Origin: a virus
Taxonomy: Duplodnaviria; Heunggongvirae; Uroviricota; Caudoviricetes
Length of the DNA: 7,460 nt
Direction: 5' to 3' (one strand)
IMG/VR virus record: IMGVR_UViG_2609459846_000009
This document shows, piece by piece, positions 127 through 7,460 of the stretch (positions are counted from its first letter, which is position 1; each line of letters starts with the position of its first letter). The notes beneath the pieces are model-generated. The model did not search any database. It was not told the DNA's origin and worked only from the letters and a program-made list of their open reading frames with translations. The position numbers were made by a program, and so were the translations under genes.

Positions 127-3528
<3,402 letters not shown>

Positions 3529-3585: not shown

Positions 3586-4233
3586 TCAGCGACCAATCAC
3601 CACAACCTGACCGCCATCCCCTTCGTCTGCCGTGCTGATCTCCTGAGAAACCACGCGTGACCCCACGCGCATTTCACCGTACAGAACCGGCAGAACATTG
3701 CCCTGGGCAACCATGTTATCCAGTGAGGAGAAATAGGTGTTCTGTTTGCCGTTATCTGTACTGGCTGCCGTGGGCGTCCTGGCTTTCGGTGCCAGCATCT
3801 GCGCCACACCACCCAGGATCATACTGGCCCCTGCTGCATACAGACCCGATACAGCCGCGGCCCCCAGCCAGCCAACAGGGTTCCACCATGCCACCGCAAT
3901 CAGCGCCGCACCCAGCACCGCCTGAAACACACCGCCACTTTTGGCACCCGCCAGACGCGGAACGACGTGGATCACGGCACCATTTGCCAGCGGTTCATTA
4001 AGACGGGCAGATAATTCATTTTCGCCTGCATCACGCCCGGAAATGCGCACCTGATACCAGCCCTCATTCAGTTTCTGGCGAAACGACGGAAGCTGTGTGG
4101 CCAGCGCCCGGATGGCTTCAGCCCCCGTTTTCACACGAAGGTCGATGCGGCGGCCAAATCGTTGTAAATCCCCGTAAAGGCAGATGCGTGCCATGCCCGG
4201 TGACGCCAGAGGGAGTGTGTGCGTCGCTGCCAT
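3586..4233 (-). CDS. I: Tail assembly protein I (N-terminal ubiquitin-like domain ending in Gly-Gly, then hydrophobic Gly/Ala-rich segment), 215 aa
   Basis: N-terminus MAATHTLPLASPGMARICLYGDLQRFGRRIDLRVKTGAEAIRALATQLP matches my recollection of lambda gpI. ATG at 4233..4231. Diglycine at residues 100-101 (codons 3936..3931). The 103-nt overlap with the upstream K ORF is the same as the K/I overlap in lambda. Confidence 0.9.
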   Translation of the reverse strand: MAATHTLPLASPGMARICLYGDLQRFGRRIDLRVKTGAEAIRALATQLPSFRQKLNEGWYQVRISGRDAGENELSARLNEPLANGAVIHVVPRLAGAKSGGVFQAVLGAALIAVAWWNPVGWLGAAAVSGLYAAGASMILGGVAQMLAPKARTPTAASTDNGKQNTYFSSLDNMVAQGNVLPVLYGEMRVGSRVVSQEISTADEGDGGQVVVIGR

Positions 4234-4874
4234 TTGTCGGTATACCTCTCTCGTTTGCTCAGTTGTTCAGGAATATGGTGCAGCAGCTCGCCGTCACCAC
4301 AGTAAATGGCGGCATGATTCGGCACCGATGAACCAAAACAGCACAGCAGCACATCGCCCGGCTGCGCCGCTGACAACGGCACCTGATACAGCCCTGTGGC
4401 CTCCAGATTATCCAGATAGAGATTCTGACCGTGACGCCACCAGTCATCCTCGCGATGAAAATCCGGCATCTCAATCCCCGCCAGATGGTAAGCATCCCGG
4501 AACAGTGTGTAACAGTCCGTCACACCGTGCTCAAAGCGCCGCCCGGTAAGATGTGGCACACAGCGGAACTTGTGAATCGCCCCCCGGCAGACCAGCCACC
4601 ACGGCAAATCACTCTGCACCTGCAGCCGCCGGTCGGCCTCACTCAGCCAGGGCAGACCACCGGGGTGGCTGTGGACCAGTGCCACAATCTCACCCTGCAT
4701 CTCTGCCTGCAGCCAGTCCTCCGGAGCCATCCGGAAATAATCCTCCGGCTCACCGGAAATATTCACGCAGGGAAAATATCTTTCCCCCTCCGGCGCTCTC
4801 ACCACGAAGCCGCACGACTCCGCTGGCGCACATCGCCGGGCGTGCGCCAGAATCGCTGATTCTGTCTCTGTCAT
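4131..4874 (-). CDS. K: Tail assembly protein K (JAB/MPN metalloprotease domain plus NlpC/P60 domain); 247 aa from first ATG, with an alternative lambda-style internal start at 4730 giving 199 aa
   Basis: JAMM motif HSHPGGLPWLSEAD (HxH-x7-S-x2-D; His codons at 4673..4665) with a candidate upstream catalytic Glu at codon 4820..4818 in PAESCG. NlpC/P60-like Cys (VTDCYTLF) and downstream His. ATG at 4874..4872 lies 4 nt after the L stop. The ORF-track first codon at 4916 is TTG, not ATG. Confidence 0.85.
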   Translation of the reverse strand: MTETESAILAHARRCAPAESCGFVVRAPEGERYFPCVNISGEPEDYFRMAPEDWLQAEMQGEIVALVHSHPGGLPWLSEADRRLQVQSDLPWWLVCRGAIHKFRCVPHLTGRRFEHGVTDCYTLFRDAYHLAGIEMPDFHREDDWWRHGQNLYLDNLEATGLYQVPLSAAQPGDVLLCCFGSSVPNHAAIYCGDGELLHHIPEQLSKRERYTDKWQRRTHSLWRHRAWHASAFTGIYNDLAAASTFV

Positions 4875-4878
4875 GGGA

Positions 4879-5577
4879 TTACTGCGAAAGTTTGTTAATG
4901 GAAAGGAAGCCGCCAAAGTTGCCGACGTTATTGCGAAACTTACAGCCGCTCAGGCATTTGCTGCATTTATCCTTCGTGATATCGGACGTTGGCTGGTCAT
5001 ATTCATCCGCGACAGCCGGACCGCTATAACCGCACTCGTCGCCGCGATAGGTCCAGGTGCAGGTGTTGGCCAGCATGATACGCCCCGGAAAAACAGAGCC
5101 ATCCGTTTCAGTCGGTGTGGACAGTACAAAAGAGACACTGACCGCGCTCAGTTCGCTGCACTGCTCGATGCGCCAGCGGCTGATCACCTCCTGCTCCGGA
5201 TCGGCTTCGCTGTTTCCGTTGACGAAGTTCACCGCATCCAGAAAACGGGCGTAAACCTTACGCCGGACCACCGTTCCGCCGACCAGACTCTGCAGGTCTT
5301 CCGCCATCCCGGTGACCATGCCGTGCAGGTTAGAAACCGTCAGTGTCGGACGGGCAGCACTGCCCTTGCCGTTCAGTTCAAATCCCGTCCCCTGAATGGG
5401 ATACGCCTGATACTGTCGCCCCTGCCAGGTGACCGGCTCACCTTTTTCGTTCTGCTCATTACAGAAAAAATAACGTTCTCCACCGACCACTGTCAGATCG
5501 ATTTCCCAGAGCACCACCTGGGCTGACTGAGTGAGGCGTGTCGTCTCATGATGTGTTTCCTGTGGAATATCCTGCAT
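4879..5577 (-). CDS. L: Tail tip protein L, 232 aa, with C-terminal cysteine cluster
   Basis: 232 aa, the same length as lambda gpL. N-terminus MQDIPQETHHETTRLTQSAQVVLWEIDLT matches lambda L as I recall it. C-terminal DECG...CSKCLSGC cysteine cluster is consistent with the iron-sulphur site reported for gpL. ATG at 5577..5575 with GGAG 7 nt upstream, overlapping the M stop. Confidence 0.93.
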   Translation of the reverse strand: MQDIPQETHHETTRLTQSAQVVLWEIDLTVVGGERYFFCNEQNEKGEPVTWQGRQYQAYPIQGTGFELNGKGSAARPTLTVSNLHGMVTGMAEDLQSLVGGTVVRRKVYARFLDAVNFVNGNSEADPEQEVISRWRIEQCSELSAVSVSFVLSTPTETDGSVFPGRIMLANTCTWTYRGDECGYSGPAVADEYDQPTSDITKDKCSKCLSGCKFRNNVGNFGGFLSINKLSQ

Positions 5578-5586
5578 CAGAGACTC

Positions 5587-5916
5587 CTATGCCACGACCT
5601 GTTCAAAATCTGCCGTTATGGTTACCCACAACGCCCCCACGCTTGCCGACCATTTACGACAAACCACCCTGATCGGCTTCCAGTCATAAGGTGGCGTCCA
5701 CTGAAATGCGCGGACGCCACCGTGCCGTTCCAGAAAGGCTTTTAAAGATGGGTGTTCACATTTACGAACACGTATCGTCACGCTGTAAGTCGACAACTGG
5801 TTATTCAGTCCCGCCGCACGACGCTGTTCATAACCATCGCCCAGCTTCACTGTCACCACTTTCGGCTCTGATACCACATTCATATCCGGGCGCACTTTCC
5901 AGTGAAACGTCTCCAT
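5587..5916 (-). CDS. M: Minor tail / tail tip protein M, 109 aa
   Basis: 109 aa, the same length as lambda gpM. Start codon overlaps the H stop in a TAATG arrangement (H stop 5918..5916, M ATG 5916..5914), as at the lambda H/M junction. Gene order H-M-L matches lambda. Confidence 0.92.
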   Translation of the reverse strand: METFHWKVRPDMNVVSEPKVVTVKLGDGYEQRRAAGLNNQLSTYSVTIRVRKCEHPSLKAFLERHGGVRAFQWTPPYDWKPIRVVCRKWSASVGALWVTITADFEQVVA

Positions 5917-7056
5917 TACCGATATGCTCCACTTAACCGACCACCATCACGGGCCTGCTGTTGCATAAAGTCCGCTGCCGCTTTTTTCCCGAGGTCATAA
6001 ACCACCTTCAGGGCAGCCGGACCTATCTGCCCGTTCGTGCCATCGTTATTGATCTCGATGTTGTACTGCGGGGCAAACATCGCCATACCTGAACCACCAA
6101 TATCCGCCACAACCCCCAGCTTACCGTCAGCACCACGACGCAGTGGCAGAATGGCTTCAGGTCCCGCTTCCCCCATCACACCCGCGCCTTTTGCAAAAGC
6201 AAAAAACGTCGGACGGTTAACCACCGTGCCACTGTAACGACTCAAATCAGCAGACTGATAAATCCCCCCATTGGCATTCAGGGAAAGGCTGCTGAGATCA
6301 AATCTCAGTACACTGCCAATCCCTTTTATCGATTTCATCATGGTTGCCTGCGCCAGGATTTTCGCCATATCTGACAGCACAGAAGAGGTGAAGGATTTGA
6401 AATTGAGTTTGCCGGTAGTGACAAAAGTTGCCAGGCCATTTCCCATGTTGCTGAAGGCTGACGAGAACACCTGTTCTGCTGTTCCTGCCGTATTATCTGC
6501 ATCCACGGTAAAATCCTGAAATGCACGCAGGACTCCGTTTTTCCAGTTACCCTGCACAACTTCAAGCTGTTGCCAGTAACGGCGATTCTCATTCAGTTGT
6601 CGGTTCAGGCTCTCCGTCAGCGCCTGCTCGGCCTTTCTGTAGTCATCCGTGTTATATGTTCCTTTCTGCTCACTATCCCGCCTCAACTGCTCCAGCTGTT
6701 GCTGGTATTTCTGGCGAAGACTCAGTTGTACCTGATATCGCTGCCGCTGCTGATCACCCATACCCACCGTGGCGATATCCAGGTCATGTTGCTGACGCTG
6801 AGCGCGCTCTTCTTCAGCCAGTTGACTGGTCAGCTGAATTGTTTTTTTCTTCAGCTCGTTGAGTGCCGTCTGTTTCTGAAGCTCCTGCTGTTTTACATCC
6901 AGCAGCGTCAGTGCCTGAATCAGTTCATCTTTACGGGCCAGCACACTCTTTTCATCTGCCGTCAGTTCTTTCCCGTCCAGGTCGCTGATGCGCTGCTGCA
7001 GAGCCAGAAGCTGTTTATGCGCTTCTGTCATCCTTTCCGTGGCAATGCCTGCTGAC
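5916..7056 (-). pseudogene. H: Tail tape-measure protein H, 3' fragment (about 380 C-terminal codons), truncated at its 5' side by an IS insertion
   Basis: C-terminus ...INNDGTNGQIGPAALKVVYDLGKKAAADFMQQQARDGGRLSGAYR resembles the lambda gpH C-terminus. Q/E/L-rich coiled-coil-like region is typical of tape-measure proteins. About 380 aa remain against about 853 aa for lambda H. The reading frame runs upstream into IS-derived sequence at about 7057. Confidence 0.8.
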
Positions 7057-7098
7057 TGAACCGCCCCGGGTTTCCTGGAGAGTGTTTTATCTGTGAAC
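7057..7098. repeat. Right terminal inverted repeat region of the IS3-family element
   Basis: Non-coding stretch between the IS terminus (7057, 5'-TGAACC...) and the transposase stop codon (7099..7101). The exact length of the inverted repeat cannot be fixed without the other IS end. Confidence 0.55.
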
Positions 7099-7460
7099 TC
7101 AGGCTGCCAGATCATCGTTTCCGATGGAAGCATAATAAGCTTTTTCTGCTTCTGCCGGTGGGATATGGCCCAGCCTTTCCAGCAATCGTCGATTGTTATA
7201 CCAGTCCACCCACGTGAGTGTGGCCAGCTCCACTTCTGTCCGGTTTTTCCAGCTCTTACGGTGTATTACCTCCGCTTTGTAAAGGCCATTGATGCTCTCC
7301 GCCATCGCGTTGTCATACGAGTCACCAGTACTTCCTGTTGATGCCAGTAATCCGGCTTCCTTAAGCCGCTGTGTGTAGGCCAGCGATACATACTGAGAAC
7401 CTTTATCACTGTGATGGACTGTGCCGGACGGTTGACGGGCCCATAACGCCTGCTCCAGAG
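7099..7460 (-). CDS. IS3-family transposase OrfB (DDE integrase core), C-terminal portion; 5' end lies outside the window
   Basis: Minus-strand frame is open from the window edge to the stop at 7099..7101. Hand translation upstream of the track's Met gives ...STGSTGDSYDNAMAESINGLYKAEVIHRKSWKNRTEVELATLTWVDWYNNRRLLERLGHIPPAEAEKAYY..., the conserved catalytic-Glu region (YDNA-AES...NG-LK-E) of IS3-family OrfB. Confidence 0.85.
   Translation of the reverse strand, partial: LEQALWARQPSGTVHHSDKGSQYVSLAYTQRLKEAGLLASTGSTGDSYDNAMAESINGLYKAEVIHRKSWKNRTEVELATLTWVDWYNNRRLLERLGHIPPAEAEKAYYASIGNDDLAA

Follow-up and report, generated by a model that had tools for sequence, protein, structure and literature searches.

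Probable simple insertion of an IS629-type element into the tape-measure gene of a lambda-like Escherichia coli prophage

INTRODUCTION

Tail assembly in bacteriophage lambda depends on the tape-measure protein gpH, a protein of 853 aa that is needed for formation of the tail initiator and for setting the length of the tail. In the prophages of E. coli, disruption of genes by IS629 is a known driver of prophage decay and of strain-to-strain polymorphism. The element, which has IS1203 and IS3411 as isoforms, exists in subtypes that differ by 4-5%, generates duplications of 3-4 bp, and has 62% of its copies in O157 within prophages; no sequence-based target preference was seen for it (Rump et al. 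2011, PMC3271280). Defective O157 prophages, for their part, are mobilisable with the help of co-resident prophages (PMC2669165).

Here we analyse a stretch of 7,460 bp (the window), which is the whole of contig JNQF01000079.1 in the draft assembly GCA_000704005.1. A sequence-only reading of the window had proposed that an element of the IS3 family, similar to IS629, abuts a truncated tape-measure gene H and that the prophage is probably defective. By comparing the junction with those in other E. coli genomes, we find an IS629-type insertion of the ordinary sort in the tape-measure gene of a prophage, an already-known kind of prophage decay.

RESULTS

An intact tail module adjoins a fragment of H

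All of the close matches to the window come from E. coli, and its minus strand carries a tail module of the lambda type, with the genes in the order H-M-L-K-I-J on that single strand (Table 1). The Pfam matches of M, L, K, I and J cover essentially the full length of these proteins. Neighbouring genes overlap in two places: the stop codon of H and the start codon of M share one base (TAATG, window 5914..5918), and K and I overlap by 103 nt (4131..4233), as they are likewise annotated in relatives. Both overlaps are the usual tight coupling found in lambda-like tail genes. Antisense to J, there is an open frame of 510 aa (901..2433, plus strand), which we take as a mechanical ORF within a long gene. 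An Rfam scan of the window returned no match.

Table 1. Features of the window, with positions counted from its first base
Feature	Position	Strand	Basis
Tail tip / host-specificity protein J, 1132 aa, intact	127..3525	-	Six GpJ domain families (Pfam)
Tail assembly protein I, intact	3586..4233	-	Pfam Lambda_tail_I
Tail protein K (JAB + NlpC/P60), intact	4131..4874	-	Pfam; coordinates as annotated in relatives
Minor tail protein L, intact	4879..5577	-	Pfam Phage_tail_L, full length
Minor tail protein M, intact	5587..5916	-	Pfam Phage_min_tail 1-108/108
3' fragment of tape-measure gene H, Q642..R1021 + stop	5916..7056	-	Pfam, TIGR01541, alignment to intact allele
Hybrid ORF of 405 aa, 25 IS-derived codons in frame with the H fragment	5916..7133	-	ORF list
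GAC, single visible copy of the 3-bp target-site duplication	7054..7056		Flanks both IS ends in E203449 and F8798
Right-hand 404 bp of IS629-type (IS3 family) element, contig ends within	7057..7460	-	Identical IS3 family copies
Terminal inverted repeat IRR, TGAACCGCCCCGGGTTTCCTGGAGA	7057..7081		23/25 positions equal IRL of complete copy; TG...CA ends
Transposase orfB 3' end, 119 codons + stop 7099..7101	7099..7460	-	Pfam, NF033516, RefSeq annotation in E203449

One end of the window, position 7460, lies inside the IS, and the other, position 1, lies 126 bp beyond the stop codon of J; multicopy prophage or IS sequence at both contig ends would be the kind of spot that breaks a short-read assembly. 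A look-up with the exact sequence of J leads to a single contig, which has 7460 bp and is the window. Since the window is a complete contig, position 7460 is a contig break rather than an arbitrary cut, and the draft contig stops there because the assembler broke inside the repeated IS. The sequence-only reading was thus right that simple insertion and IS-mediated deletion cannot be told apart within the window.

The H fragment ends where it had been placed, with its stop codon at 5916..5918, and the earlier count of about 380 C-terminal codons was accurate: the 379 codons at 5919..7055, together with a Gln codon that is split by the junction, make 380 residues. The fragment matches Pfam Tape_meas_lam_C with 80.9 bits (cut-off 23), in addition to TMP_4, and matches TIGR01541 over the entire profile (positions 1-332/332) with 282.9 bits (cut-off 104.75). 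The intact allele of H, found in strain Combat11I9, encodes 1021 aa; the fragment differs from this allele at a single position in 1141 nt, which changes one amino acid (E671 versus K), and is therefore undecayed. The uninterrupted frame of 1021 aa expected of this tape measure is absent, and only residues 642-1021 adjoin the IS in the window.

The IS extends the reading frame of the H fragment to 405 aa (Table 1). We considered an outward promoter and an expressed hybrid protein and rejected this candidate: no sigma-70-like promoter was found in 5800..7460, and the gene caller of the source collection reports a 281-aa ORF at 5916..6761 instead of the hybrid. The 405-aa ORF is treated here as mechanical.

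The junction is with the end of an IS3-family element

The sequence TGAACCGCCCCGGG starts exactly at window 7057, the junction between H and the IS, and the switch at about 7057 from phage sequence to an IS terminal repeat, followed by the 3' end of a DDE transposase, stands as first described. On the minus strand, 7102..7458 is free of stop codons and encodes 119 aa with matches to Pfam rve, rve_3 and rve_2 above their cut-offs. The same 119-aa fragment aligns with positions 264-369 of 369 in NCBIfam NF033516 ('IS3 family transposase') at E 3e-35, with a score under the full-length cut-off, as a fragment would give. The further proposal that 7057..7460 would match an IS3-family element is borne out: among the E. 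coli chromosomes and plasmids listed, at least 15 contain a copy with 100% identity under the annotation 'IS3 family transposase', and for 747 records the identity of the best match reaches 99% or more. As expected for the IS3 family, we find a DDE transposase with an RNase-H-like (rve) core and imperfect terminal inverted repeats of the form 5'-TG...CA-3'. Judged from these matches, the resemblance of the H/IS junction to the end of an insertion sequence is no chance likeness.

A complete copy of the element is present at the identical junction in E. coli E203449, where it is 1310 bp long (L001 21158..22467); the 404-bp piece in the window corresponds to bases 907-1310 of this copy. Its terminal repeats agree at 23 of 25 positions and have the ends TG...CA. 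In the E203449 copy, beyond the end of the window's contig, we read orfA in frame 0, orfB in frame -1, an A6 slippery run at nt 373, and an Rfam ALIL pseudoknot that scores 120 bits (gathering score 50). Indeed, the PGAP annotation of this copy includes a 'programmed frameshift', and the overlapping orfA and orfB with programmed -1 frameshifting are those of the IS3 family. Similarly, the target-site duplication falls within the 3-4 bp of the family, with GAC on both sides of the element in both E203449 and the O157:H7 strain F8798.

The identity of the complete copy is 97.7% with the element deposited as IS629 in phage BP-4795, 97.3% with 'IS3 family IS629' of Stx2_499 and 96.0% (52 mismatches in 1310) with the copies in O157:H7, which PGAP assigns to the IS1203 family. 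The 404 bp in the window are only 92.5% identical to the O157-type IS629/IS1203. By the thresholds of a length near 1310 bp and an identity of about 95% or more to a named copy, the full-length copy in the relative qualifies as an IS629 isoform. On these sequence comparisons the description 'IS629-like' is correct for the element in the window, the name resting on the full-length relative and on the 4-5% diversity among subtypes.

Relatives with the same junction carry both halves of H

Among complete chromosomes, only that of E203449, a strain from human stool in Mali, shares the junction at 100% identity, and it is 100% identical to the window throughout 3751..7460 (3.7 kb). In E203449, the IS is flanked by GAC on each side, and directly beyond it are the 5' 643 codons of H, then gpT, gpG and V and the remaining tail and head genes. 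RefSeq already annotates an identical copy, as a pseudogene together with an IS3 transposase. A second, intact H in the same prophage, which the sequence-only reading had named as evidence against an interrupted gene, was sought in E203449 and is absent from its prophage, where the gene next upstream of the 5' H fragment is gpT. A third genome (IMG/VR 2585427765_000007 and _000009) contributes two contigs, L008 with the near and L009 with the far junction, that overlap by 1117 bp within the IS, which places a complete IS between the halves of H; GAC is also present at the far junction. Thus, the far side of the IS is read in the relatives (E203449 and IMG/VR 2585427765) rather than in the assembly of the window. 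The junction pattern had no match among species-representative genomes, and a 658-aa fusion product of H and the IS was absent among the best 120 of 2805 protein matches, in which shortened forms of H are buried in large 90% protein clusters.

All of the differences between the window and E203449 are in J and the start of I. Window 751..1250, in the C-terminal third of J, differs by 138 mismatches plus indels, and there are scattered differences across the rest of J, which is 1132 aa in the window and 1160 aa in E203449. From its sequence, the receptor-binding end of J looks like a mosaic replacement that arose through recombination.

Identity of 100% over 3.7 kb beside the junction indicates that this segment is of recent common descent and that the H::IS event is the same; on this sequence identity, the interruption of H in the window and that in E203449 are almost certainly one event by descent. 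Since J differs, the two prophages are not identical, and a later IS-mediated rearrangement in the strain of the window is possible. We estimate at about 0.85 the probability that H in the window strain likewise carries a simple IS629-type insertion, the far side in the window genome being deduced by descent from the 3.7 kb of identity.

For a simple insertion, we would expect that a 1310-bp IS629-type element of the IS3 family, which moves by a copy-out-paste-in route with an OrfAB transposase produced by -1 frameshifting, transposed into H of a lambda-like prophage. Oriented like H, the IS would lie between codons 642 and 643 of the 1021, and the GAC target would have been duplicated on its entry. 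The 5' 643 codons of H should then be found on another contig of GCA_000704005.1, adjoining the left end of the IS. Simple insertion further implies that a contig of JNQF01 reads ...CCCGGGGCGGTTCA and, directly across the boundary, GACTGTCTGGCAGC...; the left-junction string expected in GCA_000704005.1 (JNQF01) is CCCGGGGCGGTTCAGACTGTCTGGCAGC, after which H would run from codon 643 back to codon 1, with gpT/gpG beyond it.

The prophage lineage has lesions beyond the insertion

Split in this manner, H would yield at most a product of 658 aa (H residues 1-643 plus 15 residues encoded by the IS) that is without Tape_meas_lam_C. If no tape measure joins the J-I-L-K-M tip complex, no tails would be made, and by analogy with lambda genetics tail assembly almost certainly fails.

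When the IS is removed in silico from H of E203449, a 1-bp deletion remains near codon 502 (GTGTCGCGGG becomes GTGT-GCGGG; L001 ~22890). The independent contig L009 has this deletion too, as its alignment with E203449 is free of gaps. Since it is common to E203449 and L009, the deletion, which lies outside the window, is a real second inactivating lesion, and excision of the IS alone would not restore H.

The E203449 prophage occupies the Qin site, with rspB on one side and a truncated ydfJ on the other, and from the rspB side its order is another IS3-family element, hokD, DUF968, rusA and Q; the annotation of this prophage has no int, xis, repressor or replication genes. The element beside hokD, a different one of the IS3 family, stands in place of the int-proximal end (L007 20797..21944; L001 6456..7739). 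The arrangement suggests that the loss of the early region in E203449 was IS-associated. There is good support for regarding this lineage as a cryptic prophage or remnant, and 'probably defective' was, if anything, an understatement, considering the frameshift in H of the relatives and the loss of the whole early region from E203449.

Alternative readings of the junction and of the prophage

The rivals to a simple insertion differ in what they place beyond position 7460. In an IS-mediated deletion or rearrangement, the 5' half of H would be gone from the far side of the IS, lost by a deletion beside the element or by recombination of two IS629 copies, and H would be truncated rather than split. 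We consider this unlikely for the window strain: the contig does end in the IS with the far side outside the window, but in both relatives in which the far side is visible there is a simple insertion with the GAC duplication intact, and one of the two, E203449, is 100% identical to the window over the 3.7 kb beside the junction. What lends the deletion some weight is the element itself, since IS629 is multicopy (10-12 places in the closest genome match queries that contain the IS), is reported to be associated with genomic deletions (PMC9943667), and has in the E203449 prophage a counterpart, another IS3-family element, exactly at the missing early region. The junction could also be an artefact in which a draft contig misjoins an IS end and a tape-measure gene, an error to which a short-read draft contig ending in a repeat is open. 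We reject the artefact, to which we assign a negligible probability, because the identical junction recurs in independent assemblies, both a complete chromosome and an IMG/VR contig.

A simple insertion could still leave a prophage that is functional in practice, either because precise excision of the IS promoted by IEE repairs H or because tail proteins from, or recombination with, a co-resident lambdoid prophage make good the defect. IEE promotes excision of IS629 and can restore an interrupted gene (PMC9943667, PMC9397093); the 1-bp deletion near codon 502 in both relatives means, however, that excision alone does not restore H there. Help from other prophages has a precedent in the defective Sakai prophages, which are excised, packaged and transferred via prophage-prophage interactions (PMC2669165), and the window keeps intact M, L, K, I and J genes along with an undecayed H fragment, but the E203449 prophage is without annotated int, xis, repressor and replication genes. 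A functional prophage is thus very improbable in our estimation.

H is interrupted by IS629 in other prophages

This junction is present in only 2 of 5426 complete E. coli genomes, E203449 and O157:H7 F8798. The prophage in F8798 is a different one, located between bio and ybhC and carrying nleB2, nleC, nleD and nleH1-1, and its IS is found at the same nucleotide (window 7054..7057), has an identical orientation and is likewise flanked by a duplicated GAC (L003 5155..5160, 6467..6470; L006 21426..22735). The IS in F8798 belongs to the O157 subtype, and its prophage contains another copy, 100% identical, at a distance of 12 kb. Between F8798 and E203449, the IS is 96.0% identical, while the flanking halves of H are 99.0% and 98.3% identical. 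In NZRM4165, H is interrupted by IS629 at another position, window 6476..6478 (L005 3580/4890), where the orientation is the same and the duplicated triplet is CTG; the J, I, K, L, M, T, G and V proteins encoded by this strain are identical. Ten O157-type genomes (for example 319, 350, 644-PT8 and 180-PT54) have a three-piece match layout like that of NZRM4165, as judged by the match pieces alone. H seems to be a recurrent target of IS629.

Two IS629 subtypes (52 differences in 1310) that share their exact insertion point, orientation and duplicated target while residing in two different prophage lineages would point to independent insertions. If the insertions are independent, GAC at H codon 642/643 may be a genuine preferred target of IS629-type elements, a proposal to which we give an even chance. 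It is also possible that E203449 and F8798 inherited one insertion and that gene conversion of the whole IS followed. If the preferred target is real, the hot spot would reflect a preference for a site or a structure that published surveys of IS629 have missed.

DISCUSSION

The significance of this locus is mostly one of annotation, with little beyond. The prophage can be marked as a tail-defective remnant, in which intact M, L, K, I and J are available for recombination with lambdoid phages.

The tail module of the window agrees with that of bacteriophage lambda in its gene order, H-M-L-K-I-J, in the Tape_meas_lam_C domain and in the 1-nt overlap between H and M. It differs from lambda in the length of its tape measure, 1021 aa in the intact allele of this prophage family against 853 aa for gpH; of the 1021 residues, the window keeps just the C-terminal 380. 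The copy of the element in the relatives shares with IS629/IS1203/IS3411 its length of 1310 bp, the TGAACCGCCCCGGG... repeats, the -1 frameshift, the ALIL pseudoknot and the 3-bp duplication. Compared with the IS629 copies of O157:H7, the element of E203449 and the window is a different subtype, within the 4-5% divergence described for IS629 (PMC3271280).

In the lambdoid prophages of O157:H7, IS629 likewise interrupts a morphogenesis gene, the homologous H, in many genomes. The host differs, in that the E203449 prophage is at rspB/ydfJ (Qin) and is without nle effector genes in the stretch seen. Compared with Qin of E. coli K-12, the E203449 prophage similarly interrupts ydfJ, has genes named hokD, essD, rrrQ and tfaQ, and is without integration and early regions, but it keeps far more of the late region, from terminase to tail fibres.
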